Origin: a virus
Taxonomy: Duplodnaviria > Heunggongvirae > Uroviricota > Caudoviricetes
Virus record (IMG/VR): IMGVR_UViG_2703718838_000010
Reading direction: 5' to 3' (one strand)
Length of the DNA: 15,448 nt
The stretch's first letter is position 1, and every line of letters starts with the position of its first letter. Shown here piece after piece: positions 213 to 15,448 of this stretch. The position numbers and the translations under genes are program-made. A model generated the notes under the pieces. The model searched no databases, had not been told where the DNA came from, and saw nothing but the letters and a program-made list of their open reading frames with translations.

Positions 213-797
213 TTACTCCCTGACAGGGTTCGTAGGCCACTCAATATCAGGTGCAGTTGACGTATCAACACGGTTCAGCAATACCCGATACTTTTTCCAT
301 GCTTCCAGCAACGAGATTTCTTCCTCCGTTGCAATTTCCAGATCTGCAGCATCCTGAAGCGGCGCAATATGCTCACTGGCTACCTGCATCAGGTTGTTTT
401 TTGTTTCTTCCGCCTCCCGGATCCGGAACAGTTTTTCTGCTTCCGTATCCTTCACCCAGGCTGTGCCGTTCCACTTCTGAAACTCCCCTTCCGGCGATAA
501 CCAGGTAACATTTTCCGGTAACGGACCGAGTTCAGAAATAAATAACGCGTCGCCGGAAGCCACGTCATAAACCGTTTTACCCCGATGATCTTCAACGAGA
601 TGCCACGATGACTCATCACTGTTGAAAACAGCCACGAAGCCTGCCGGAATATCTGGCGGTGCAATATCGGTACTGTTTGCTGGCAGACCTGTATGAGGCG
701 GAATATATGCATCACCTTCACCAATAAATTCATTAGTTCCGGCCAGCAGATTATAAATTTTTATGGTCCGTGGTTGTTCACTCATTCTGAATGCCAT
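213..797 (-). CDS. tfa: Tail fiber assembly protein (lambda Tfa-like, 194 aa)
   Basis: ORF track 213..797 (-). Translation [24 protein letters not shown]... matches my recollection of lambda Tfa almost throughout. ATG at 797..795 shares one nucleotide with the stf TAA stop (799..797), typical translational coupling. Stop TAA at 215..213. Confidence 0.9.
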
Positions 798-3700
798 TAT
801 GCAAGCCTCACAATATAGTTAAATGCGATGTTTTTGACGGTGTTTTCCGCGTTACCAGCTGCGTTAACGGTGATGGTGTGTCCATGTGAACCAATCGCAA
901 CGGAGTGCGTATGCGCACCAATACCTACAGTATGTGCGTGTGCACCTGCGCTTGCAGCAGTACCCGATACAGAGTGCGTATGAGCGCCTGCAGAAGAAGT
1001 GTTAACACTGTATTTAGAATAATCAGGTGATCCACTTCCCGGAGCACCTTTGGTGCCACCTGAAACAAATGTTATCGAATGGGTATGTGCACCGGCTGAA
1101 GCAGCCGTACCGCTAACACTATGGGTATGCGCCCCGGTGTTATTCGTGGATTTAGTGCCGTAATCAAACGACGATGTGGTTTTCGTCCCCAAATCCGTAC
1201 TGGATGCGCTGGCGCTGTGGGTGTGCGATTTAATGCCGTCCTGTTCCTGAGACAATACGGCCCGACCACTGGCAGGTTTGCCCTTAATCGTCCAGCCACG
1301 CATATCAGGGATCACACCTGACGGATAAGCGGCTGCAAGTTTCGGGTAAGCAGATTTGTCAAAAGTCTGCCCCTGCATCAGGGCATAACCAGACGGAACG
1401 GTATCTGATGGCCACGGGATTGGTGCACCGACTGGATAAAACTCTGCAGGAGGATGAGCTGAGGTGTAAAGCTGCGCCCACGGCGACCAGTTTGCGTCGG
1501 TCGTATCCCGTCGTGAACGAATAAATGCCGGAGCATGAGCACCGCTTGTACCACTCCAGCCGATGAGTAACTCACCTTCGCCAACGGCTGTCATCCCTTT
1601 CAGGTGAATGATATTTCCATACGCTGTTGGATATCCGTTGTTATACACCTCGTATAACTCAAGACCTGTTGCCCCCTGCGTATTGTCTGTCAGCGCGGTT
1701 ACCCGACCTTTTGAAGCCAGATTAACTGATGATACTGCTGTTCCACCTGACGGTAACGCCCCGATCTCTGATGCCGTTGGCTTATTTCTGGAGTTATAGT
1801 CCCTTCGCCAGCCAGGTGAATAATCTGTTCCGTGATTAATATAGGTAAACTGGGCGTTAGTTGTTCCACCACCAGTGGAGGTGGTCGGTGTGGTAATGCG
1901 GATCGTCATCGCTGACTTTATCCCCATTACTTCAATGACAGCTCCGGCGAGATGAATATTACCGCAGCCAGTATCAGTAATGATTTTATTATTGCCATAA
2001 GACCAGGAACCCTTGCACATCCAGTATGGATGGTTAAATGCTCCCTGAGAATCCAGCCACTCGATAAACTGTGCAGTCGTCCAGTCTCCTGTTGTTGTGC
2101 TTACTGACCCACCGAAGGCGCGGCAGGCACCAATATTTTTCGTAAAGGTGTCTTTGCCAGGGATATCCGCACCGTTCTGATCTTTCTGCAGACGTTTCTC
2201 AGCATTGTCATTGGCTGCTTTTACTGCCTTTGGCGTTGCCGCCAGCGTTTCAGACGTGCTGTTGGTCGCGCTGCTTAGCTGGATTATCCCTTTCTGTGCT
2301 GTCGTTGCATCCTGTGCGGTGTATTTCCCGTTAGCCAGGTCATACGCGGCCTTAACGGCTTTTGGCGTTGCCGCCAGTGACTCGGAAGTGCTGTTGGTCG
2401 CACTGCTGAGCTGTACTATCCCCTTTTTCGTCGTGCTCGCATCCTCAAGCGCCACGGCGGATGCAATATCCTCTGCCCGTTTTGCCGCTGTCTCAGCGCG
2501 CGTTGCTGCAGATTCCGCCGTACTTTTGCTCTGAGCTGCTGCCGTCGCACTGCCAGCTGCCTCTGTCGCCTTCGTGGATGCCGTCGTGGCGCTACCCTTC
2601 GCTGCTGACGCCTGTCTGGTCGCCTCATCTTTTGAAGCAGACGCCGATGAGGCCGATGACGACGCCGAACTGGCTGACGATGCGGCAGCCGTTTTTGAGG
2701 ATTCTGCGCTGGTTTCCGACGCTTTCGCGTTCGTTTCGGATGTCTTCGCTGCGGAAGCAGACCTCGCTGCTGCGCTGGCCTGTTCAGTGGCTTCGCCAGC
2801 CTTCGTTGTGGCTGTTGAAGCAGACGATGCGGCGCTTTCTGCCGATTTTCCGGCGGCGGTGGCACTGGCTGAGGCCTGCCCGGCACTTGTTGACGCTGCA
2901 CTGGCAGACGACGCAGCCGCTGTTTTTGAGCCTGCCGCAGCCGAGGCGCTCTGTCCCGCTGCCGTTTCAGAAGACCTGGCGTTCGTCTCTGACGTTTTTG
3001 CCGCCTTCGCGGAATTTCCTGCCGCTGTTGCCGAGGAAGCTGCGCTACTGGCGCTCGAGGATGCGTTCGTTTCTGATGATTTTGCCGCCTCTTTTGAAGC
3101 CGCCGCATCCCGGGCTGAGGTGGCAGCTTCTGACGCTTTCGTAGTCGCGGTGGATGCAGAAGTGGCTGCTGATTGTTGTGACGCTGCAGCATTCGTTTCT
3201 GACGTTTTCGCGGCACTGGCACTGGTAGCTGCCGCGCTTTTTGAGGACTCTGCAGCGGCAGCACTTTTTGATGCTTCAGTGGCCTTTGTTGATGCCGTTC
3301 CTGCGCTGGAAGTCGCTGACTGAGCCGACGACGCGGCCTGTCCGGCTGACGTGCTGGCTGCGCGTGCTGAGCCTGCAGCATCAGTCGCATGGGTTGCCGC
3401 CTCACGGGCTGATGTGCTGGCATCACTGGCTGACTTCTTCGCGGCTGCCGTGTTCTGTGCCACCACGGACGCGTTACGCGCCACCTCTTCCACCATCAGC
3501 TCAAAACGGCGCAGTGCCTCCGGACGGGCATCATCCTCCGTCATGGCACCGAGAAAATCATTCAGCGTACCGGGTCGGGAATCTTCATACACTGTGATGG
3601 TCCCGGCATGTGACGGCGGGAATCCTTCCACCAACAGAATAACGCTGTACTGACCGTACTCAACGTCCATACTGTAACGCCCGGCTTCATCCGGATTTTC

Positions 3701-3820
3701 AGATGCCAGCGTGTTCACCACCACCGTGGTACTGTTACGTTTTGCTTTCAGCTGGATTGTGCAGTTCTGTACCGGTTTTCCTGTGCCGTCTTTCAGTACA
3801 CCTGAAATTTTTACTGCCAT
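797..3820 (-). CDS. stf: Side tail fiber protein, intact long form (about 1007 aa), with Ala/Ser/Thr-rich quasi-repeats and a C-terminal His-x-His repeat domain
   Basis: ORF track 797..3826 (-) begins MNMAVKISG; the track start at 3826 is GTG, while the ATG at 3820..3818 gives [26 protein letters not shown], the lambda Stf N-terminus as I recall it, and is preceded by GGGGTGA. C-terminus has repeated GAHTHS / GAHAHT / GSHGHT motifs and ends [11 protein letters not shown]. Confidence 0.85.
2228..2421. repeat. Two imperfect direct repeats of about 63 bp (2228..2290 and 2359..2421, period about 131 bp) inside stf, encoding the repeated motif [11 protein letters not shown](S/T)[11 protein letters not shown]
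   Basis: Seen in sequence: ctttggcgttgccgccagcgtttcagacgtgctgttggtcgcgctgcttagctggattatccc versus cttttggcgttgccgccagtgactcggaagtgctgttggtcgcactgctgagctgtactatccc. Confidence 0.8.
2430..3430. repeat. Low-complexity, internally repetitive GC-rich segment of stf encoding the Ala/Ser/Thr-rich shaft ([12 protein letters not shown]-type quasi-repeats)
   Basis: Translated stf ORF shows degenerate repeats ([43 protein letters not shown]...). The same DNA yields long spurious ORFs in other frames (2416..3426 -, 2574..3323 +), a hallmark of repetitive GC-rich sequence. Boundaries approximate. Confidence 0.6.
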
Positions 3821-3828
3821 ATTCACCC

Positions 3829-3858
3829 CACAAAAAAGCCCGCCTGAACCGGCGGGCT
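3829..3858 (-). terminator. Rho-independent terminator-like hairpin downstream of lom (stem gcccgcc / ggcgggc, loop 6 nt, then T6 on the minus strand)
   Basis: Plus strand 3832..3858 is aaaaaagcccgcctgaaccggcgggct; on the minus strand this is agcccgccggttcaggcgggcttttttgtg. It lies 27 nt after the lom stop (TGA at 3887..3885) and directly before the stf RBS and ATG at 3820. Confidence 0.6.
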
Positions 3859-3884
3859 GTCATAACACTGTGTTACCTGGCTAA

Positions 3885-4484
3885 TCAGAATTTATAACCA
3901 ACACCCACGATGAACCCGTCAGTGCGCCAGTCACCACTGCCGGAGCCTTCATAAGCGACATCAATGGCCACGGATTCGGTCGGGTTAAACTGCACGCCAG
4001 CTCCCCACGCCAGAGACGTGTTGCTGTGGCGACCGTCATCACTTCCGGTCAGCACATCGTGCTTTTTCCCCTTGTTGTCAGTTACGCGGAGATAATCCCC
4101 GGAGAAAGTCGACACACGGCTGTAAGCCACACCCGCCATCGCATACGCGCTGAACCATTCATTCACGCGCACAGACGGCCCCGCCATTACGCTGAACCAG
4201 CGGTTACGAACGGAATCTTCATGCCAGCGGGTATCGCTGTAACGGGTAATCTGGCGATTCTTGTCTCCTGCATAGCTGAACGACGTCACCATCCCCAGTG
4301 TGTCCGTAAACTCATAACGGTATTTCACGTTAATCCCGTTCAGATCATCACTGCCGGGAACGTTCGTCCGGGCATGAAGATACCCCGCGCTCAGCGTGGA
4401 CTGATGTTCAGACGCCCATGCAGGCGCACCGGATACGGCCAGACAAATGGCTGCGGACAAAATGGCGGCATAAAGTTTACGCAT
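3885..4484 (-). CDS. lom: Outer membrane protein Lom (Ail/Lom/PagC-family beta-barrel; lysogenic-conversion moron)
   Basis: ORF track 3885..4484 (-), 199 aa. N-terminal signal peptide [24 protein letters not shown] and C-terminal ...[10 protein letters not shown] ending in Phe, typical of outer-membrane beta-barrels; matches lambda Lom as recalled. RBS GAGAGG 5 nt upstream of ATG (4484..4482). Confidence 0.9.
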
Positions 4485-4506
4485 AATTACCTCTCGCTTT
4501 TCTGCA

Positions 4507-4532
4507 ATAAAAAAGGCGTCATTTCTGACGCC
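4507..4532 (-). terminator. Rho-independent terminator-like hairpin between J and lom (stem ggcgtca / tgacgcc, loop tttc, then T-run on minus strand)
   Basis: Plus strand 4509..4532 is aaaaaaggcgtcatttctgacgcc; on the minus strand the hairpin is followed by ttttttattgcag. It sits 19 nt downstream of the J stop (TGA 4553..4551) and about 30 nt upstream of the lom ATG. Confidence 0.55.
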
Positions 4533-4550
4533 CGTTCTGGGTTATAAAAT

Positions 4551-7952
<3,402 letters not shown>

Positions 7953-7971
7953 TCACGCTCCATAAACGACA

Positions 7972-7991
7972 AAACCGCCCGCAGGCGGTTT
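7972..7991 (-). other. Perfect 8-bp stem / 4-nt loop hairpin (aaaccgcc-cgca-ggcggttt) in the 60-nt I-J spacer
   Basis: Seen in sequence at 7972..7991. On the minus strand it is followed by tgtcgtttatggagcgtgagg and then the J ATG. Could be a weak intrinsic terminator or RNA-processing structure. Confidence 0.4.
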
Positions 7992-8009
7992 CACATAAAA
8001 CATTTTGCA

Positions 8010-8681
8010 TCAGCGACCAATCACCACAACCTGACCACCGTCCCCTTCGTCTGCCGTGCTGATCTCCTGAGAAACCACCCGCGACCCCACACGCATTTCA
8101 CCGTACAGAACAGGCAAAACATTGCCCTGAGCAACCATGTTATCCAGTGAGGAGAAATAGGTGTTCTGTTTGCCGTTATCCGTTGTCTGTGTACGGGGAG
8201 TTCTGGCTTTCGGTGCCAGCATCTGCGCCACACCACCGAGCACCATACTGGCACCGAGAGAAAACAGGATGCCGGTCATACCACCGGCCCCAATGGCTGC
8301 CCCCCATGCTGCAAGGGTGGCTCCGGCAGTAAAGAATGATCCGGCAATGGCGGCAGCTCCCAGGACAATCTGGAATACGCCACCTGACTTGGCCCCGGCG
8401 ACTCTGGGAACAATATGAATCACAGCACCATCAGGCAGAGTCTCATGTAACTGCGCCGTTAACCCGGACGAGCTGACGTCCCGCCCGGCAATCCGTACCT
8501 GATACCAGCCGCCGCACAGTTTCTGACGAAACGCCGGGAGCTGTGTGGCCAGTGCCCGGATGGCTTCAGCCCCCGTTTTCACACGAAGGTCGATGCGGCG
8601 GCCAAATCGTTGTAAATCCCCGTAAAGGCAGATGCGCGCCATGCCCGGTGACGCCAGAGGGAGTGTGTGCGTCGCTGCCAT
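8010..8681 (-). CDS. I: Tail tip assembly protein I (223 aa)
   Basis: ORF track 8010..8681 (-). MAATHTLPLASPGMARICLYGDLQRFGRRIDLRVKTGAEAIRALATQL... matches lambda gpI as recalled. C-terminal half is a Gly/Ala-rich hydrophobic segment. Its 5' end overlaps the 3' end of K by 103 nt in another frame. Confidence 0.9.
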   Translation of the reverse strand: MAATHTLPLASPGMARICLYGDLQRFGRRIDLRVKTGAEAIRALATQLPAFRQKLCGGWYQVRIAGRDVSSSGLTAQLHETLPDGAVIHIVPRVAGAKSGGVFQIVLGAAAIAGSFFTAGATLAAWGAAIGAGGMTGILFSLGASMVLGGVAQMLAPKARTPRTQTTDNGKQNTYFSSLDNMVAQGNVLPVLYGEMRVGSRVVSQEISTADEGDGGQVVVIGR

Positions 8682-9322
8682 TTGTCGGTATACCTCTCTC
8701 GTTTGCTCAGTTGTTCAGGAATATGGTGCAGCAGCTCGCCGTCGCCGCAGTAAATTGCGGCGTGATTCGGCACCGATGAACCAAAACAGCACAGCAGCAC
8801 ATCGCCAGGCTGCGCCTCTGTCAGTACGACACGGTAAAAACCCGTTGCCTCCAGATTATCCAGATAGAGATTCTGACCGTGACGCCACCAGTCATCCCCG
8901 CGATGAAAATCCGGCATCTCAATTCCCGCCAGATGGTAAGCGTCCCGGAACAGCGTGTAACAGTCCGTCACCCCGTGCTCAAAGCGCCGCCCGGTGAGAT
9001 GCGGCACACAGCGGAACTTATGAATCGCCCCCCGGCAGACCAGCAACCACGGCAAATCACTCTGCACCTGCAGCCGCCGGTCAGCCTCACTCAGCCAGGG
9101 CAGACCACCGGGGTGGCTGTGGACCAGCGCCACAATCTCACCCTGCATTTCTGCCTGCAGCCAGTCCTCCGGCGACATCCGGAAATACGCCTCCGGCCTA
9201 CCGGAGATATTCACGCCGGGAAAATATCTTTCCCCCTCCGGCGTTCTCACCACGAAGCCGCACGACTCCGCTGGCGCACATCGCCGGGCGTGCGCCAGAA
9301 TCGCTGATTCTGTCTCTGTCAT
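8579..9322 (-). CDS. K: Tail tip assembly protein K, long form (247 aa) with N-terminal MPN/JAMM-like domain and C-terminal NlpC/P60-like domain; the classical 199-aa form would start at 9178
   Basis: ORF track frame 8579..9364 (-). ATG at 9322..9320 (MTETESAILAHARRC...) lies 4 nt after the L stop (TAA 9329..9327). The classical start MSPEDWLQAEMQ is the ATG at 9178..9176. A JAMM-like motif HSH-x7-S-x2-D (VHSHPGGLPWLSEAD) is visible, and a Cys/His pair typical of NlpC/P60 (GVTDCYTLF ... NHAAIYCGDGELLHH) lies in the C-terminal half. Confidence 0.8.
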   Translation of the reverse strand: MTETESAILAHARRCAPAESCGFVVRTPEGERYFPGVNISGRPEAYFRMSPEDWLQAEMQGEIVALVHSHPGGLPWLSEADRRLQVQSDLPWLLVCRGAIHKFRCVPHLTGRRFEHGVTDCYTLFRDAYHLAGIEMPDFHRGDDWWRHGQNLYLDNLEATGFYRVVLTEAQPGDVLLCCFGSSVPNHAAIYCGDGELLHHIPEQLSKRERYTDKWQRRTHSLWRHRAWRASAFTGIYNDLAAASTFV

Positions 9323-9326
9323 GGGT

Positions 9327-10025
9327 TTACTGCGAAAGTTTGTTAATGGAAAGGAAGCCGCCAAAGTTGCCGACGTTATTGCGAAACTTACAGCCGCTCA
9401 GGCATTTGCTGCATTTATCCTTCGTGATATCGGACGTTGGCTGGTCATATTCATCCGCGACCGCCGGACCGTGATAACCGCACTCATCACCGCGATAGGT
9501 CCAGGTGCAGGTATTAGCAAGCATGATGCGCCCCGGAAAAACAGCGCCGTCCGTTTCCGTCGGCGTGGACAGTACAAAGGAGGCACTGACCGCGCTCAGT
9601 TCGCTGCACTGCTCAATACGCCAGCGGCTGATCACCTCCTGCTCCGGATCGGCGTCACTGTTTCCGTTGACGAAGTTCACCGCATCCAGAAAACGGGCGT
9701 AAACCTTACGCCTGACCACCGTTCCGCCGACCAGACTCTGCAGGTCTTCCGCCATCCCGGTGACCATGCCGTGCAGATTAGAGACTTTCAGCGTTGGCCT
9801 TGCACTGGCACCTTTGCCGTTCATCTCAAATCCACTCCCCTGAATGGGATAGGCCTGATACTGCCGACTCTGCCAGGTGACAGACTCTCCTTTCTCGTTC
9901 TGCTCATTGCAGAAAAAGTAGCGATCCCCGCCTACCTCGGTCAGGTCGATTTCCCAGAGCACCACGCTGGCCGACTGCTCCGCACGAATGCATTCATTCA
10001 GCGTTTCCTGTTGTATGTCCTGCAT
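9327..10025 (-). CDS. L: Tail tip assembly protein L (232 aa), with a C-terminal Cys cluster
   Basis: ORF track 9327..10025 (-). [33 protein letters not shown]... closely matches lambda gpL as recalled. C-terminal cysteines (CTWTYRGDEC ... KDKCSKCLSGCKF) fit the iron-sulfur-binding gpL family. ATG of L shares a nucleotide with the M stop (ATGA overlap at 10025). Confidence 0.9.
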   Translation of the reverse strand: MQDIQQETLNECIRAEQSASVVLWEIDLTEVGGDRYFFCNEQNEKGESVTWQSRQYQAYPIQGSGFEMNGKGASARPTLKVSNLHGMVTGMAEDLQSLVGGTVVRRKVYARFLDAVNFVNGNSDADPEQEVISRWRIEQCSELSAVSASFVLSTPTETDGAVFPGRIMLANTCTWTYRGDECGYHGPAVADEYDQPTSDITKDKCSKCLSGCKFRNNVGNFGGFLSINKLSQ

Positions 10026-10363
10026 CAGATCACCACTTCGTCAAACTGACACGAAAAATCGGTATAGGTGATATGTTCTGTCGCTGACCACGTTCGACAC
10101 ACCACTCTGATTTTTCTGTTAATACCCGGCGGGCGCCAAAAAAAAGATTTATAGCCTTCATGCCGGGCTAAAAATTTTTCAAATGAATCACGTTCATTCG
10201 CCTCAACTTTGAAATCACAGGTGAAAACGCGCAGAGAATGATTAAGTCCATTTGGACTTCGTTGCTCATAACCATCATCAAATCTTACAGTTTTTATCGA
10301 TGGTTTATTTTCTGTTTTCATTCCATCCTCTGGTAACCAGTGAAATTCTTCCGTATTAGCCAC
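10025..10363 (-). CDS. M: Minor tail protein M homolog (diverged from lambda gpM); start uncertain between GTG at 10363 (112 aa) and ATG at 10321 (98 aa)
   Basis: ORF track 10025..10363 (-). Position between tape measure and L, and conserved core [10 protein letters not shown] / KSFFWRPPG recalling lambda M (VRFGDGYSQR / KSFLWTPP). The GTG start overlaps the tape-measure stop by 8 nt; ATG at 10321 has GAGG 5 nt upstream. Confidence 0.75.
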
Positions 10364-13300
10364 TTAACATTCCCCCATCACGTCGCATATTTAACAGATT
10401 GCCCTGCACCCGCTGATCAACCATCCCCATAAGTGCTTTTATTGCCTGAGGGCCAATCTCTCCATTCTGGCCGTCATTTTGAATAGTGATTTGGTATACA
10501 GGGGCATAGGTAATATCTCCGCCTCCATTACCACTTTTACTATTAATAGCTCTGACACCAAGAGAACCATCGGAAGTTCGTGTTAATGGCATAATGGCTT
10601 CCGGTCCAGCCTCACCAAAAACACCAGCCCCTTTTGCAAAAGCAAAAAATTGCGGGGAATCATAAATACCGTTCGAATACGTGCTCAATGACGGAGACTC
10701 ATAAACACCGCCCTTTGCATTCGGAATAAATTTACTAATAGCACTCCCGATAGTTCCTAAAATCCCCCCAGAAGAACTGTTACTAATGCTGTCGATAATC
10801 CCAGTAATTGAAGCCTTTAATGCTATTCGACTAAGATCCGAAATCACGGAAGTAGCGAAAGAACGAAAATTTGCCTTGCCTGTCGTGACAAAATCACCCA
10901 GCGCATCGGTCATCCCATCAAACATCTGAGTCGTGGTTGATTTTATCTGCTCACTGATATCCTTAGTGTCATCCAGCCAGTTATTGAATCCCTGGGAGGC
11001 ACCACTAACCCAGTCTCCTGCCTGAATATCGAGCTGCTCGTTTTTCTGTCTGACAATTTCTTTTTCCCGTTCCAGAGCATCATTCAGAGCCTGCATTTTC
11101 TCTTGAAAAACATGATCTGACATTCCACGGGATTTATCTGCATAGTCACGTTCAAGTTGCAGACGCTGATTGTTATATCCATGTTCAATCCGCAGTAATT
11201 CCTGCTGGCGTTGCTGATTTTTATCGCCAACCCCATAACCAGCAATCTGAATATCATACCCCTGCTGACGATTATCAATCGAAGCCTGCAATGAATCACG
11301 CCATGCTGTTATTTCGGCGGATTCCTTGATTAGCCTGTTATTTTTTTCAATCGCAACATTTTTCTCCATCAACGTGGTTATTTCTTCCCGGTGTAAGAGA
11401 AGCGATTTCTGATCCTGGGTTAATTTCGATGATGGTCGTGACTCTAGGTCGGCAATCCGCTGACGCCACTTAACCAGTTCCTGTTCAGAGGAACTTAATT
11501 TAACGGTCAACTCAGCTTGTGAACTTAGTAACGCATTCTGTTGATTCAGATGATCAATCATTCGTTGGGCTGCATCATCAGAATAACCTTTCGCCTTTGG
11601 TTGCTTTGGATCTTTATAACGCTCATTTATTTGAGCGATAAGATTATTATATTCTTCCTTTGAATACTGATTCTTTAGCTTTTCCAGTTTTGCAAGTTCA
11701 CTAGCTCTCTGCTGCTCCCGGGTCTGATATTGTTTTGAAAAGGCATCTGCTCTCTGTCTGAGTTCAATTCCTTCCTGTTGTCGCTTGTTGTAATCGTTTA
11801 TTGATGAATTTAGTACGTCCTGAGCAATTTTTTCTGCTTGAAGTACGCCCAATTGCTGCTTTAATCGTGCCAGCCTTTTATTTTGAGCTCCGCCATCTCC
11901 AATGCCACCTAACCCGAAAACTCCGGGTCGGGTATTTTTTTCTATTTCATCAATTTGACGGAGAACATCTGAGATTTTTTGATCAAGGGAGGCCTCACGG
12001 CCAATATCCAGCATGGAATCCCATGCCCATTTTGCGGAGTCTGCGACAGCTTTCCATGCAGTCTCAAGATAACCAAGATTTTCTTTAATCTGGTTGGTGC
12101 GCTGGATCATTGAGGATGAGTATTCTTCTGTCGCAATGCGGGCGGCCTCCTGCTGGTTCCCTTCATCCTGTAGCGCCTTAATCTGGTTATAAGTCGCAAG
12201 TGTCAGAAAATGGTACTGATCATTAAGTTTTGATATGGCACTGACAGGATCCTTTGCAATTTCATTGAAGTCATTAACCAGTTGTTCGGTTGATATTCCT
12301 GTTACTTCGCTCGTTTTTACTATCGCTGTCGTCACTTGCTCCAGCGAACTGCTCGCTACCTTTCCCGAACGCACAAGCTGATTTAATACTGCCGCCGCAG
12401 CACCAGTTGTCGAATCAGCCGCATTCCCGGCACGTTGAGCTATATCGCCCAATTGCCCGCTGGTTGTCCCCAACTGATTTCCGGTAAGAATAAGAGATTT
12501 ATTAAATTCGTCCTGCTCCTGAGAGCCTTTATAGTAAGCCAGTCCTAAGACCCCAACGGCTGCTGCGGCCAGGGTAAAAGGATTAATTAATCCCAGCACA
12601 TAAGAACCTACACCTTTGATCGCCGGGCCAATCCCACCGAACATATCTTTTAGCTGGCCGCCCTGCTGCATTAACACCATAAATGGCGACTGACCAGTGG
12701 ACAACCCAACAACAATATCCGTCATTTGTGCAGGCAACATGCGCATAGCAAAAGCCGTTTGTTTTGCCGACATTCCGGTTTTGCTTAATTGTGATTGAGT
12801 AACCTCAAGCTCACTCCGCATAGCACGAAGTTTTCCAGAAAGCTCCTCATACATTTCAGGAGAAAGCATCCCCTTAGCTTTTGCTTCATTGAGCTGTTTC
12901 TGTTGTTCTACCAGACGATTAAAAGCAGTTCCGACAGGATCAAGTTGAGCAATCAGACGTTGCAAAGCAACAACCTGTTCATCATGCGCTTTTGCTGCTT
13001 CTCGCTCTGCCTGAGCCTCTCCGGTAAGCTCTCGCCGTGTTTCCTGTATTTTTCGGCTATAATTCTCAAACTGAGAACCATTTATTTTCCCGGATGCAAA
13101 CGCAGCATTAAGTTCATCATGCTGTTGTTCAAGATTTCTTAGCGCCGCAGCCAGAGGGTCGATCTTGTCCAGCATTCTTTGAAAGGCCTGAGCCTGCGCT
13201 TCCTGCTGGGCGGCAGCAAGTTTTCCGGCCTTCTCGGCTTCTCTCTGCGCTTGCGCAACCCCGCTCAATTCCTCTGTGGTTTCATTAAGTTTACGGACAA

Positions 13301-13589
13301 GAAATTCATATTCTTCTTTATCAATAAGCCCTTTATCGAAAAATTTCTTTAATTCAGAATAGCGTCGACCGACAGTATCAATTGCGGCACCAACTGGATC
13401 AATAGCTGCTTTTAATTTTGCGAGCGCGTTCTTCTCATCTTCTGTTGCCTTAGTCACTTTCCCTGCGCTATTTGCAGCAGTTTCCCCAGCCTGCGTCATT
13501 TTGACTAATGAGGAGGTCAGATTGTCAGCATTATTTTTCGCTCCAGTGCTATCAATAATTATTGCGAGACGCGAGGTTTGCTCTGCCAT
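10356..13589 (-). CDS. Tail tape measure protein (1077 aa; functional equivalent of lambda gpH but a different, more AT-rich lineage)
   Basis: ORF track 10356..13589 (-). Largest gene, between the chaperone pair and M. N-terminal about 55-aa tandem coiled-coil-like repeats (…[20 protein letters not shown]…, …[20 protein letters not shown]…, …[20 protein letters not shown]…) and a hydrophobic Gly-rich central segment ([19 protein letters not shown]...[14 protein letters not shown]). ATG 13589..13587 preceded by AGGAG. Confidence 0.85.
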
Positions 13590-13607
13590 TTATTAAAACT
13601 CCTGACA

Positions 13608-13634
13608 ACAAAAAACCCACCGCGAAGTGGGTTT
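13608..13634 (-). terminator. Rho-independent terminator-like hairpin between the chaperone T-frame and the tape measure gene (stem aaacccac / gtgggttt, 6-nt loop, T-run on minus strand)
   Basis: Plus strand 13610..13634 is aaaaaacccaccgcgaagtgggttt; on the minus strand it reads aaacccacttcgcggtgggttttttgttg and ends about 20 nt before the tape-measure ATG. Confidence 0.55.
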
Positions 13635-13754
13635 CAGGCGACATAATAGTAGATATAGCGATTACGAGGCCACGCAATGCTTTTCTCCAGGAGCATCATC
13701 GATTTAATTAAAGACACCATCACATCTCTGTAACAGAGTGTACGTAATTAACAA

Positions 13755-14071
13755 CTACACACACTGCTCCTGAAAATACTGGTCATCCAGTGCAAAGATC
13801 ACTGCTTCAAATTCATCGCGCTCAATCAATACCGGATGAGTGGCTAAATATTCATTTATCTCTGTCAGAGATAAAGGCAAAGGCACCCCAGCCATTCCAG
13901 CATAACGTCGGGCACGGTATATTACCGAATAGGCGTACAACAACTCCTTAAGCACCGGGTCTATTTCTGGTTCCGGTATCGGTGGCAACCTGAGTTTTTC
14001 TCGCTTCCATCTTGCCTTTTCCCCCCTTTCTCCCCCGAACTCCGATAACCACCGCTGGGCAGCTATGGCTT
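13755..14071 (-). CDS. T-like -1 frame extension of the tail assembly chaperone (expressed only as a G-T fusion, about 105 aa added; fusion about 255 aa)
   Basis: The ORF track lists 13755..13988 (-) from a TTG start, but the same frame is open upstream to 14099 and overlaps the end of the G-like gene, exactly as in the lambda G/GT arrangement. Stop TAG at 13757..13755. Confidence 0.65.
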
Positions 14072-14524
14072 TTTTATCGTATCCTGCTTCTGCTGCTCTT
14101 TACCCTGGGCGATGCTGGCTGCTTCTGCAAGGATCTGCCAGTACAACTCTGGATTCTGCTTAAGCAGCGCGATCCCTCGTTCTGCCGTATATTCCAGTGC
14201 AACCTCAACACCATTAACCAGTTCACCAACCCCTTTCCAGTCTTTCAGCAGATAACGAGCGGCATTATCAATGAGTAAATCATCAACAGAATCCACCTCG
14301 GAAACCTTTGAAATATCAAACTCCTTCGTTCCGACGTGCAAACTGGCATCCATTTTCTCAATGTGGCGACGGATTAATGCATTACGGGAGCGATACTGAT
14401 CGTTATCGCTGCTTGCCACCAACAGTTTTAACCCGTCTACAGGTTTTAAGTCCTTCATTGGCGTAAACCAGCGTTCTCCACCAATGATAATTTTCTGATT
14501 AAGAATAAACATCCATAACCTCAT
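14063..14524 (-). CDS. Tail assembly chaperone (gpG analog, about 150 aa); start either ATG 14524 or ATG 14512
   Basis: ORF track 14063..14524 (-). Sits between the major tail protein and the tape measure gene, ends ...KEQQKQDTIKKP-stop (TAG 14065..14063), and carries an A_AAA_AAG slippery heptamer 2 codons before its stop. No similarity to lambda G itself; the call is by synteny plus the frameshift architecture. Confidence 0.7.
   Translation of the reverse strand: MRLWMFILNQKIIIGGERWFTPMKDLKPVDGLKLLVASSDNDQYRSRNALIRRHIEKMDASLHVGTKEFDISKVSEVDSVDDLLIDNAARYLLKDWKGVGELVNGVEVALEYTAERGIALLKQNPELYWQILAEAASIAQGKEQQKQDTIKKP
14069..14075 (-). promoter_or_regulatory. Programmed -1 ribosomal frameshift slippery heptamer A_AAA_AAG (minus strand) joining the G-like frame to the downstream T-like frame
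   Basis: Minus strand reads ...GAT ACG ATA AAA AAG CCA TAG in the G frame. A -1 slip on A AAA AAG enters a frame that I translated by hand as open from 14099 to the stop at 13755 (…KKAIAAQRWLSEFGGERGEKARWKREKLRLPPIPEPEIDP…). The same heptamer is the classical E. coli dnaX slip site. Confidence 0.7.
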
Positions 14525-14572
14525 TCAATGCGTCCCCCTGTAGGGCAGTACCACAGGAGGAATAACGGAAAA

Positions 14573-15436
14573 TCAACTAATCGCCTCAGCACTGGCTTTT
14601 GCGATCACGGCAGCCGGGGAATTTTTTTTTCTGGTTATCGTAGGTGCTTCATCTGCTGCGGTAATGCTCAATTGAACCTGGATAATGTCGCTATTACCCC
14701 CATCAGGCCATTCACCTGACACCTGAACCTTCGGGAAACTGAAAGTGTATGCCCCCTCTCCATTCGAAAGCGTGAAGCTGAACGGAACTGTTTCTCCAGT
14801 CAGTGTTTTACTCCAGATTTCCCACGCGGCTTTAGACCATGAAAGCGTCACCGTACCGGACGGTGTAAAAGTAGTCGGAATATTTGCTCCTGCATAAGGC
14901 GAGCCAGTCCCGATACAACGCTGTGTCTGGAGTTTGTTATCGAACTGAATATCAAAACTGTCGATACAAAAACCGTTACCTCCGGCAACACCATTCAGGC
15001 TTACTGCTGAAACCTCCTTAAACGAATAACGTAGCTTTCCTGCACTATCCACAGGTTCGCCTTTGATAAAATTCGTATCATCGGCCTTTGATTCCCAGTC
15101 CAGTCCGGCAAAGGTTACGGTCGCTGTAATATCGCCGTCGTTAGGGATCTGCATTTTCCATGAGCCAACCTGCGCTCCTCTGACGACAGAGGCAATTCCG
15201 ACATCGGACGCATAGGTCGCCAGAGAAAATGTTATTCGCTCATTCCCCATTGTCAGAGAATCGCCTGACCATTCCGCGCCGAAACAGGATGCAAGAAAAT
15301 CATCATGTTGACCCCAGCGAAATTTGGTACCAACATCACCGCCGACATCCACAGTGCCAGGCGTCGCCCCCTGAGCCATCCGGGAGCCACCAATCTCATT
15401 ATTTTCGCCTTTATTCTGGGTGGGTTTTACTCCCAT
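14573..15436 (-). CDS. Putative major tail (tube) protein, about 270-287 aa; start uncertain (ATG 15436, internal ATG at 15379, or beyond the window edge)
   Basis: ORF track 14573..15436 (-). Lies immediately upstream of the chaperone pair, the usual position of the major tail protein in siphovirus tail modules. The frame stays open to the window end (15448). Not similar to lambda gpV by eye, so the call is by synteny. Stop TGA 14575..14573. Confidence 0.6.
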   Translation of the reverse strand: MGVKPTQNKGENNEIGGSRMAQGATPGTVDVGGDVGTKFRWGQHDDFLASCFGAEWSGDSLTMGNERITFSLATYASDVGIASVVRGAQVGSWKMQIPNDGDITATVTFAGLDWESKADDTNFIKGEPVDSAGKLRYSFKEVSAVSLNGVAGGNGFCIDSFDIQFDNKLQTQRCIGTGSPYAGANIPTTFTPSGTVTLSWSKAAWEIWSKTLTGETVPFSFTLSNGEGAYTFSFPKVQVSGEWPDGGNSDIIQVQLSITAADEAPTITRKKNSPAAVIAKASAEAIS

Positions 15437-15448
15437 AAGCGCTAACTT

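Follow-up and report, generated by a model that had tools for sequence, protein, structure and literature searches.

The window analysed here (15,448 nt) raises the question of where a tail operon passes from a non-lambda to a lambda-like lineage, and whether it does so only once. An earlier note proposed a single junction in or near M, joining one non-lambda module (tube, chaperone, tape measure and M) to one lambda-like module (L through tfa).

Tail operon of an intact Rac-type prophage

An intact E. coli lambdoid prophage of the Rac type has the window as its tail operon, the half that holds the tail genes; its P22-like head genes lie beyond the window. Every gene is encoded on the minus strand, the order being tfa-stf-lom-J-I-K-L-M-H-(T/G)-tube. 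Relatives of the window adjoin trkG, with uspF, ompN and nifJ as neighbours, the chromosomal neighbourhood of the cryptic Rac prophage of K-12. K-12 Rac matches 12655–14414 at 99.9% DNA identity (G, the T part and the first 311 tape-measure residues; ydaY and ynaA, the latter being those 311 residues) and also keeps 235–4280 (lomR, stfR and tfaR; 92–98% over lom, stf and tfa), but 4281–12654 (most of the tape measure, M, L, K, I, J and the 5′ part of lom) and the head-to-tube genes are deleted, and both joints described below are missing from K-12 Rac as a result. A Rac-like phage, KingRac, makes particles (PMC6731689).

The whole window is collinear, at ≥80% coverage, with 349 E. coli genomes, and 98% of it is matched at 96.9% identity by one phage record in GenBank. 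The earlier note had named such a collinear match as evidence against mosaicism; the matches show that the arrangement is fixed and known, not that it is unmosaic with respect to lambda.

The joint between M and L

On the lambda-like side, gene order and Pfam families are those of the lambda tip module, and L, K, I and most of J are 89–98% identical to lambda at the protein level. L (9327–10025; tail tip hub protein; Phage_tail_L, E = 1e-98) and K (8579–9322; tail tip assembly protein with JAB and NlpC/P60 domains) each have 94% amino acid identity, I (8010–8681; tail tip plug protein, lambda allele) has 98%, and J (4551–7949; central tail fibre) has 89.5% overall, being near-lambda down to 4993. 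A TTG at 9364 was rejected as the start of K in favour of the ATG at 9322. The proposal that L through tfa are all close to lambda holds for these genes and for tfa (95%), but not for lom (46% identical to lambda Lom), for the 3′ end of J (no lambda DNA match over 4551–4992) or for stf, itself a mosaic (N-terminus 81% and C-terminus 68% identical to lambda, middle non-lambda). Lambda homology in intact Rac-type prophages is patchy over ~10 kb between tfa and the 3′ end of M, 5 kb of it (4993–10047) being continuous at 94.6% DNA identity.

Identity to lambda DNA becomes undetectable beyond 10047, a position within M and 22 nt from its 3′ end, placing the outer joint at 10025–10047 (minus strand), across the last 22 nt of M and the overlap of the M stop with the L start. 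G+C content is 0.575 over 4993–10047 vs 0.455 over 10048–15448 (means of 100-nt windows 0.576 vs 0.456; Mann-Whitney p = 1e-14), the maximum-likelihood change point lies at 9987, and GC3 is 0.67 in J, K and L vs 0.34–0.38 in M and H, passing from 0.67 in L to 0.34 in M. Among 13 non-randomly chosen Rac-type loci, nucleotide diversity drops about six-fold at the outer joint, from 0.057 on the L-to-J side to 0.009 on the M/H side, with the last mismatches at 9939–10012. A switch in or near M and a more AT-rich tube/chaperone/tape-measure/M side, both anticipated in the earlier note, were thus borne out, and composition is not uniform across the window. The M/L joint is a real and sharp recombination joint. 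Counted where a single alignment spans the junction, it is present in 717 of 5426 complete E. coli genomes (about one in eight) and was also found in Shigella flexneri and Escherichia ruysiae, leaving an assembly or contig-joining artefact, in favour of which nothing was found, with a practically negligible probability.

M (10025–10363, minus strand; distal tail ring protein) is, as had been noted, only distantly related to lambda M (41% identity; 49% to M of Stx phages), with the VRFxDGY and KSFxWxPP cores present. It nevertheless belongs to the lambda family (Phage_min_tail, E = 3e-30; PDB 8iyk_M, lambda gpM, E = 2e-24), and the M/L boundary parts divergent from near-lambda versions of one tip module. 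This sequence gradient might arise with no recombination at M/L if M and H merely evolved much faster than L, K, I and J. Both do appear intrinsically faster-evolving, since between lambda and an Stx2 phage identity is 75% for L and 87% for K, but 45% for M and 27% for the C-terminus of H. With L at 94%, however, the same gradient predicts an M far above 41%; DNA identity goes from 95% to undetectable within a few bases, with GC3 falling from 0.67 to 0.34; and Rac-type loci show the opposite pattern, M and H being nearly invariant and L to J diverse. A difference in rate alone is therefore very improbable as the source of the joint.

A change of family inside the tape-measure gene

At the other end of the window, the tube gene (14573–15448, minus strand) is cut at its 5′ end by the window edge; position 15436, previously taken as a boundary, is an internal ATG, and the protein has 320 aa in relatives. 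It matches Phage_tube_2 (E = 9e-32), PHROG_290 and PDB 8xan_B (‘major tail structural protein’, E = 2.5e-12), with no BLASTP match to lambda V (Phage_TTP_12 plus Big_2), and shares about 70% identity with tubes from a Siccibacter prophage and two Klebsiella phages, 5 LV-2017 and ST16-OXA48phi5.1. The tail assembly chaperone gene G (14063–14524, minus strand; PHROG_313, E = 4e-46) is the homologue of K-12 Rac ydaY (99.9% DNA identity), with no Pfam match and none to lambda G. A heptamer, A_AAA_AAG (14069–14075, minus strand), two codons ahead of the G stop, is a candidate −1 frameshift site. The T part (13755–14068, minus strand; PHROG_1189, E = 3e-36) lies in the −1 frame relative to G, a frame that runs uninterrupted between the slippery site and the stop codon at 13755, and the predicted G-T fusion matches positions 36–246 of the 258 of PHROG_313 unbroken. 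T gave a weak match to Phage_TAC_18, under the curated cut-off, and no BLASTP match to lambda, so that chaperone and tube are indeed not recognisably lambda. The 165-nt spacer between T and H contains a terminator-like hairpin (13612–13635, minus strand; 10-bp stem, 4-nt loop, then a U-run), which is part of the minimum free energy fold of the spacer, the spacer as a whole not being unusual (z = −1.46).

The tape measure (H) has 1077 aa vs 853 aa in lambda, as had been read, the 224 additional residues being accompanied by an N-terminal extension and a TMP_4 domain. A different repeat architecture was not confirmed: no DNA tandem repeats were found, and neither H gave BLASTP self-hits. Nor can H and M be classed as non-lambda, since TMP_2, Tape_meas_lam_C and Phage_min_tail are the Pfam families of the lambda proteins, and H is 28% identical to lambda H over residues 270–1077 (BLASTP).

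Residues 1–737 (11379–13589, minus strand; TMP_2 and TMP_4) are of a shaft type also seen in Klebsiella phages ST16-OXA48phi5.1 and Kpn_R1 (both 63% identity) and 5 LV-2017 (42%), and in Erwinia phage Gungnir39 (36%), which also share head, neck, tube (66–71%) and chaperone (50–65%); residues 200–737 are 52% identical to the tape measure of the Siccibacter prophage. By tblastn, matches to Klebsiella, Erwinia and Vibrio tape measures all end at residue 737. The inner joint (11379–11423, minus strand) is a conserved 15-residue motif (residues 723–737) at the end of TMP_4, beyond which likeness to Klebsiella-type tape measures is lost (alignment and 30-residue sliding identity). Residues 738–1077 (10356–11378, minus strand), with Tape_meas_lam_C at 858–932, have as best relatives the H proteins of Stx phages (41%; 59 of the last 90 residues identical), mEp460 (37%) and lambda (27%), and no BLASTP match to Klebsiella or Erwinia tape measures. 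Tape_meas_lam_C is found in H of Rac-type prophages, lambda and Stx phages despite three different N-terminal architectures, and is absent from the Klebsiella and Erwinia tape measures, which accompany a DUF1833-type tip. The genes after the tape measure in the three annotated records examined (ST16-OXA48phi5.1, 5 LV-2017 and Gungnir39) encode a ~154-aa protein (present as two short ORFs in ST16-OXA48phi5.1), a DUF1833 protein, a small hydrolase-like protein and a ~920–1020-aa tail protein, with no M or L.

As residues 1–737 are shaft-type and residues 738–1077 and M belong to lambda tip families, domain content and alignments place a change of protein family inside the tape-measure gene, after residue 737. 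A weak change point in G+C content within the right half of the window falls at 11987 rather than 11378 (logLR 6.1), and tape-measure regions are known to differ greatly in evolutionary rate, so that mosaic signals in them can be false positives (PMC10684548). The single junction of the earlier note would account for the sharp break in DNA identity and GC3 at 10047 and for tube and chaperone families different from lambda V, G and T, but it is unlikely given that H and M are lambda-family proteins, that the closest relatives of the shaft both lose likeness at residue 737 and bear a different tip, and that the lambda-like side is itself patchy. That a tube of another family would work with a lambda-type tip still stands; the tape measure is split, however, and the non-lambda module is not one unit. 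Among tape measures in the PDB, H is also similar to 9l9p_B (E = 3e-57) and 25vf_5 (E = 1e-20; Tape_meas_lam_C), and M matches 25vf_6. The papers carrying these codes describe a conserved lambda-like tip in phage T1 and F-pyocin (PMC11945409, PMC13455828), so a lambda-type tip on a different shaft is already documented, although these are distant relatives whereas the tip in the window is partly near lambda itself.

Probable histories of the three segments

The window probably consists of three segments with different histories in an intact Rac-type tail operon, the inner joint being the functional module boundary, the first two segments old and the third lambda-like by exchange. Segment A (15448 to about 11379) would comprise the tube, the G/GT chaperones with their candidate −1 site and tape-measure residues 1–737, forming with the P22-like head genes a shaft type common to Klebsiella, Erwinia and Siccibacter prophages; segment B (11378–10048), tape-measure residues 738–1077 and M, would represent divergent, AT-rich versions of the tip-proximal parts of the lambda family; and segment C (10047–4993), L, K, I and most of J, ~95% identical to lambda, would have been kept lambda-like through repeated homologous exchange with the many other E. 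coli lambdoid phages and prophages. Of the tape measure, the C-terminal third would travel with the M-L-K-I-J tip, and the N-terminal two thirds with chaperones and tube.

Segments A and B appear to have been together for long, as suggested by their similar G+C content (0.464 and 0.431; head genes 0.479), their equally low diversity (0.0083 and 0.0097), the Siccibacter prophage, in which the same shaft type is collinear with a full but very divergent H C-terminus (37% identity) and M-L-K-I-J (27–35%), and near-equal counts in complete E. coli genomes (721 for segment B, 717 for the inner joint, as for M/L), which are consistent with a single fixed arrangement. The Klebsiella lineage may be the one that swapped tips. 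Separate and fairly recent capture of segment B from an AT-rich lambdoid donor, making the operon a three-parent mosaic rather than an old A and B with an imported C, is possible but doubtful. Segment B has the lowest G+C content in the window and is closer to E. coli lambdoids than to Siccibacter (H C-terminus 41% vs 37%, M 49% vs 27%), its nearest known relatives being Stx-converting/HK97-like tails (e.g. Stx2_EH1846; M 49%, C-terminal 420 residues of H 36%), with the same M-L-K-I-J order but a TMP_3 plus Phage_HK97_TLTM N-terminal tape measure and lambda-like tube and chaperones. However, a search of 185,579 species-representative genomes gave no donor, relatives outside Escherichia and Shigella being at most 41% identical; Rac-type loci vary as little in segment B as in A; and its composition is near that of A and the head genes, unlike its lambdoid relatives (nearest protein relatives 0.57–0.59; Stx-converting/HK97-like tails 0.57 vs 0.43).

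Exchange in segment C would, on the three-segment reading, still be going on. Five loci differ from the window by 4–83 nt over 10048–15434, yet by 243–372 nt over 4993–10047, as much as lambda itself does, and these differences fall in patches; for example, the I allele of the window is 97% identical to lambda at the DNA level vs 74–78% to I of four otherwise near-identical Rac-type loci. M is the same protein (WP_000024051.1) in 8 of 9 RefSeq-annotated loci examined, where L has six accessions. The mechanism proposed for segment C, relaxed homologous recombination of lambda with Rac, has been shown experimentally by De Paepe et al. 2014 (PMC3945230), only in the stf-tfa homology and only for the defective K-12 Rac. 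The reach of exchange would be limited to DNA homology, which ends at 10047, in the conserved 3′ part of M.

In lambda, one face of the gpM ring contacts gpV and the opposite face gpL/gpJ, and the C-terminal helix of gpH rests on the trimer of gpI (PMC10721106, PMC12617516); the C-terminal third of gpH lies in the tip lumen, on this gpI plug. By analogy with these structures, the divergent M ring of the Rac-type virion would have near-lambda L and J stacked against one face and, against the other, a tube whose sequence family is unrelated. The M/L arrangement is that of the standard intact Rac-type prophage, neither a singular event nor a new one: the window is a case of ordinary lambdoid mosaicism, and its M/L joint, sharp and real but an ordinary recombination joint, is the edge of a zone still exchanging alleles with other lambdoid prophages.

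An intact Rac-type tail operon

All long orfs of the window read on the minus strand. From the fiber end they are tfa (213-797, 95% protein identity to lambda), stf (797-3826; 1009 aa, mosaic relative to lambda), lom (3885-4484, 46% identical to lambda Lom), J (4551-7949, 89.5%), I (8010-8681, 98%), K (8579-9322, 94%), L (9327-10025, 94%), M (10025-10363, 41%) and H, the gene for a 1077-aa tape measure (10356-13589, 28% to lambda H over residues 270-1077), giving the H-M-L-K-I-J order of a lambda-type tail tip module. These are preceded by a 77-aa orf (T part, 13755-13988), a 153-aa orf (chaperone G, 14063-14524) and the tube gene (14573-15448), none of which has a lambda match. The tube gene had been started at 15436 in an earlier note drawn from the sequence, but the ATG there is internal: the gene is cut by the end of the window, and the full-length protein has 320 aa in relatives (e.g. 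29544-30506 in the related locus L002).

The Pfam families of the tip genes (Phage_min_tail, Phage_tail_L, JAB plus NlpC/P60 and Lambda_tail_I) all exceed curated cut-offs. In H, TMP_2 (residues 267-471, E = 1e-81) and a C-terminal Tape_meas_lam_C (858-932, E = 2.5e-26) place the protein in the lambda tape-measure family, with TMP_4 (671-748) as an extra domain, and H matches lambda gpH in the PDB (E = 1e-70). For both the tape measure and M, which the earlier note described as non-lambda, the Pfam families are thus shared with the lambda proteins (TMP_2, Tape_meas_lam_C, Phage_min_tail). The tube protein is of the Phage_tube_2 family, with PDB 8xan as a solved relative; the Phage_TTP_12 and Big_2 domains of lambda gpV were not found at the sequence level, and BLASTP against gpV gave no match. 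Neither lambda chaperone family (Phage_TAC_2 for G, Phage_tail_T for T) was detected, G being without any Pfam match and the T part having a weak, sub-cut-off match to Phage_TAC_18; the PHROG families of the chaperones are 313 and 1189.

Tail assembly chaperones are encoded by the 153-aa orf together with the orf in its -1 frame, in a lambda-style layout of overlapping G/T orfs upstream of the tape measure with a putative programmed -1 frameshift. A candidate slippery heptamer (A_AAA_AAG; 14075-14069, minus strand) lies two codons ahead of the G stop, the -1 frame relative to G is open as far as 13755, and the predicted G-T fusion, which would read ...DTIKK/AIAAQ... across the site, aligns with PHROG_313 (tail assembly chaperone) as one stretch. 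RefSeq labels G ‘YdaY’ and the T part as a separate ‘hypothetical protein’. The 165-nt spacer between T and H (13590-13754), absent at this position in lambda, carries a strong terminator-like hairpin (13612-13635, minus strand; 10-bp stem, 4-nt loop, U-run), which lies within the late operon. Apart from this hairpin the fold of the spacer is unremarkable (z = -1.46), and its interpretation as a structured RNA was rejected.

The window represents the tail operon of the E. coli Rac prophage in its intact form. Of this, K-12 Rac (L009) retains 12655-14414 at 99.9% identity, comprising ydaY (chaperone G), the T part and ynaA (tape-measure residues 1-311), as well as 235-4280 (lomR, stfR, tfaR; 92-98% identical), so that all of the remnants ydaY, ynaA, lomR, stfR and tfaR are nearly identical to the window; 4281-12654 and the head-to-tube genes have been deleted. 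The K-12 orphan genes ydaY and ynaA are identified as the chaperone and the N-terminal tape-measure stump of this operon; given the candidate frameshift joining YdaY to the T part, ydaY looks like what remains of a tail assembly chaperone. In L009 (7622-9599), the end of ynaA is a deletion fusing the tape-measure N-terminus to lomR (window 12655 to 4280), while in a second deletion, which removed the head-to-tube genes, ynaK (ParB-like) directly abuts ydaY.

Collinear relatives with 97-98% identity are present in 349 complete E. coli genomes. The prophage type is known and widespread, and its intact tail operon is still frequent in wild E. coli; strains with the intact prophage include E. coli E275a (NZ_CP035865) and NCTC9064. 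In the collinear relatives the operon is continued by a P22-like capsid module, trkG and lysis genes of lambdoid type, and adjoins sitABCD-uspF-ompN-nifJ; such chromosomal flanks are absent from the window itself. The sitABCD iron/manganese transporter operon ends exactly at window position 1 in relatives (L002, 11551-15000). As it fills the place of pinR-ynaE in K-12 Rac, sitABCD looks like cargo at the fiber end of this prophage type.

A single GenBank ‘phage’ record is collinear with the window, ‘Salmonella phage SPF_0923’ (L001, ON032529.1), in which nifJ, ompN, uspF and sitABCD lie beside the tail fiber genes, as in E. coli chromosomes. The record has the look of a predicted prophage plus flanking host DNA, its Salmonella host is doubtful, and it was rejected as evidence of particle formation, as were the vB_EcoS-* records, which are in silico prophages of clinical isolates (bioRxiv 10.1101/2022.06.29.498070). 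KingRac, a Rac-like prophage, produces tailed particles (PMC6731689).

The outer joint at the M/L boundary

Over 4993-10047 the DNA is 94.6% identical to that of lambda; the match ends at 10047, 22 nt within the 3′ end of M, to the right of which no lambda match was detectable even with a blastn word size of 11. Identity of at least 90% was reached only in this stretch and in parts of stf and tfa, not across the tail operon. Composition changes close by: G+C content is 0.575 over 4993-10047 vs 0.455 over 10048-15448, GC3 drops from 0.67 (J, K and L) to 0.34 (M) and 0.38 (H), 100-nt GC windows differ (p = 1e-14), and the change point of maximum likelihood falls at 9987. The junction noted earlier, with its more AT-rich tape-measure side, is real and has solid statistical support. 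Its account of a distant M (41% identical to lambda, with both named motifs present), a 1077-aa tape measure (orf 10356-13589) and tube and chaperone proteins not recognizably lambda (no protein match) was also borne out, while the proposed difference in tape-measure repeat architecture was dropped, since TRF and BLASTP self-comparison found no tandem or internal repeats in either tape measure. The proximity to lambda proposed for L through tfa holds for L, K, I, J and tfa (89.5-98%) but not for lom, for stf or for the 3′ end of J. The lom gene is of the lomR type (97.6% identity to the K-12 lomR fragment, window 3885-4993 region), and the part of J without a lambda DNA match (4551-4992) suggests a different receptor-binding domain. 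Stf shares 93% identity with the lambda Stf collar domain over residues 1-100 and 68% with lambda Stf at its C-terminus, while the stretch of stf from ~1440 to 2900 gives no more than weak or short lambda matches.

Variation among Rac-type loci changes abruptly at the same boundary. Across 13 loci, nucleotide diversity is 0.057 in segment C (L, K, I and most of J; 4993-10047), 0.0097 in segment B (H residues 738-1077 plus M; 10048-11377) and 0.0083 in segment A (tube, chaperones and H residues 1-737; 11378-15434), so that B is as invariant as A and a six-fold step falls at M/L. Over 10048-15434, five Rac-type loci are only 4-83 nt away from the window, vs 243-372 nt over 4993-10047, the latter as distant as lambda itself and in allele-sized patches; their last mismatches lie at 9939-10012. 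Among nine RefSeq-annotated loci examined, eight share one M protein accession, while L has six accessions. Gene I of the window is 97% lambda-like, vs 74-78% identity to I of four of the five loci. These four are 98.5-99.9% identical to the window right of 10047, with a small I allele swap within the tip module (8001-8500).

Different rates of divergence in M and L might alone have produced such a contrast. Between lambda and a Stx phage, however, L is 75% and M 45% identical, so that an L at 94% predicts an M far above the 41% found here; within the Rac type, moreover, the pattern is reversed, and rate heterogeneity alone was rejected. Segment C would instead have been exchanged repeatedly with other E. 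coli lambdoid prophages by homologous recombination, bounded on the M side by the end of DNA homology, and repeated exchange limited in this way is the simplest explanation for the position of the outer joint. Recombination between lambda and Rac within stf-tfa homology has been measured at ~2e-6 and was mostly Red-beta-dependent (PMC3945230).

A second joint inside the tape-measure gene

The nearest non-Escherichia relatives of the tube protein (66-71%) are in Klebsiella prophage-derived phages and Erwinia phage Gungnir39, which have in common with the Rac type the head, neck, tube, chaperone and tape-measure residues 1-737; the window carries the shaft of these P22-like-head siphoviruses, with Phage_tube_2, a PHROG_313 chaperone and a TMP_2 plus TMP_4 N-terminus. 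Tape-measure identity is 63% in ST16-OXA48phi5.1 and Kpn_R1, 42% in 5 LV-2017 and 36% in Gungnir39, and all of these matches stop at residue 737. Beyond this residue the tape measure takes a different course in the three annotated records examined, and the genes after it encode a DUF1833-type tip lacking M and L, where the window has M-L-K-I-J. Residues 738-1077 match lambdoid H only (Stx phages 41%, mEp460 37%, lambda 27%), with 59/90 of the last residues identical to Stx-phage H. The switch comes directly after a motif at the end of TMP_4 (LTQDQKSLL...) that is conserved in all lineages. Tape_meas_lam_C is found in Rac-type H (TMP_2 plus TMP_4), lambda H (TMP_2) and Stx-phage H (TMP_3 plus HK97_TLTM), and is missing from the Klebsiella and Erwinia tape measures, a distribution in which the C-terminal third of H co-segregates with the M-L-K-I-J tip rather than with the shaft. 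The best second GC change point, at 11987, was weak and was not used as evidence for this joint.

Tube, chaperones and tape measure are of this type also in a Siccibacter colletis prophage (L014, NZ_JMSQ01000039.1; 1280-12757), at 46-69% identity (tube 69%, G 62%, T 57%, H residues 200-737 52%); the lambda-family distal genes that follow collinearly form a full set, though a very divergent one (H C-terminus 37%, M 27%, L 31%, K 35%, I 33%, J 34%). This arrangement indicates that the combination of this shaft with a lambda-family tip is old, and makes the prophage a useful outgroup for dating the joints. G+C content is 0.431 in segment B, 0.464 in A and 0.479 in the head genes, vs 0.57-0.59 in lambdoid relatives of B. 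No donor of segment B was found among species-representative genomes, where Shigella and E. ruysiae had copies of the same prophage and other relatives reached at most 41% identity. The exact M/L junction is spanned in 717/5426 E. coli genomes (a lambda-type M/L junction in 3534), segment B alone is present in 721 and the tape-measure-internal joint in 717, near-equal counts that are consistent with one fixed architecture. We infer a long-standing partnership of A and B, and a near-lambda origin for L-J (segment C) only. The earlier note's proposal of a mosaic junction in or near M holds broadly, but it puts the family boundary in the wrong place and makes the event more singular than it is.

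One possible reading of both joints, which we hold tentatively and at slightly less than even confidence, is that the cut site for tip swaps is, instead of a gene boundary, the conserved motif at the TMP_4 end (residues 723-737), the C-terminal third of H being a tip-specific adaptor exchanged together with M-L-K-I-J, and that M/L is a population-level recombination wall, with the genes on its left an allele pool common to E. coli lambdoid prophages and those on its right clonal. If general, this would provide a design rule for chimeric tails, and would document tape-measure mosaicism, which has been suspected, while a survey failed to confirm recently emerged cases (PMC10684548).

Module interfaces and phage mosaicism

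In lambda, the gpM hexamer sets its beta-sandwich face on the last gpV ring and its E-loops on the gpL/gpJ ring (PMC10721106, PMC12617516), the C-terminal helix of gpH (residues 818-842) lies on the gpI trimer in the tip lumen (PMC10721106), and the N-terminal collar of Stf clamps the V/M junction, contacting gpV E63 and gpM R80, K2 and W6 (PMC12617516). M of the window retains the tryptophan and arginine equivalent to W6 and R80. By analogy with these structures, module boundaries of the Rac-type tail would most likely be crossed where the tube meets M, where M in turn meets near-lambda L and J, where the H C-terminus rests on near-lambda I, and where the Stf collar holds a non-lambda tube-M junction. 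If tail length follows tape-measure length, as is established for lambda gpH, this tail would be ~1.26 times as long as that of lambda. Lambda-like tips on other shafts are documented in T1 and in F-type pyocins (PMC11945409, PMC13455828).

The phenomenon is textbook lambdoid mosaicism (PMC9836094, PMC3945230); what is modestly new is the module boundary within the tape-measure gene and the abrupt change of diversity at M/L. The value of the analysis is mainly one of clarification, locating the true module limits of the operon without overturning current understanding of lambdoid phages. Both joints suggest cut points for engineering tails with new tips, and the inner joint and the M/L diversity step are examples of phage mosaicism being shaped jointly by structural constraints and by the reach of DNA homology.
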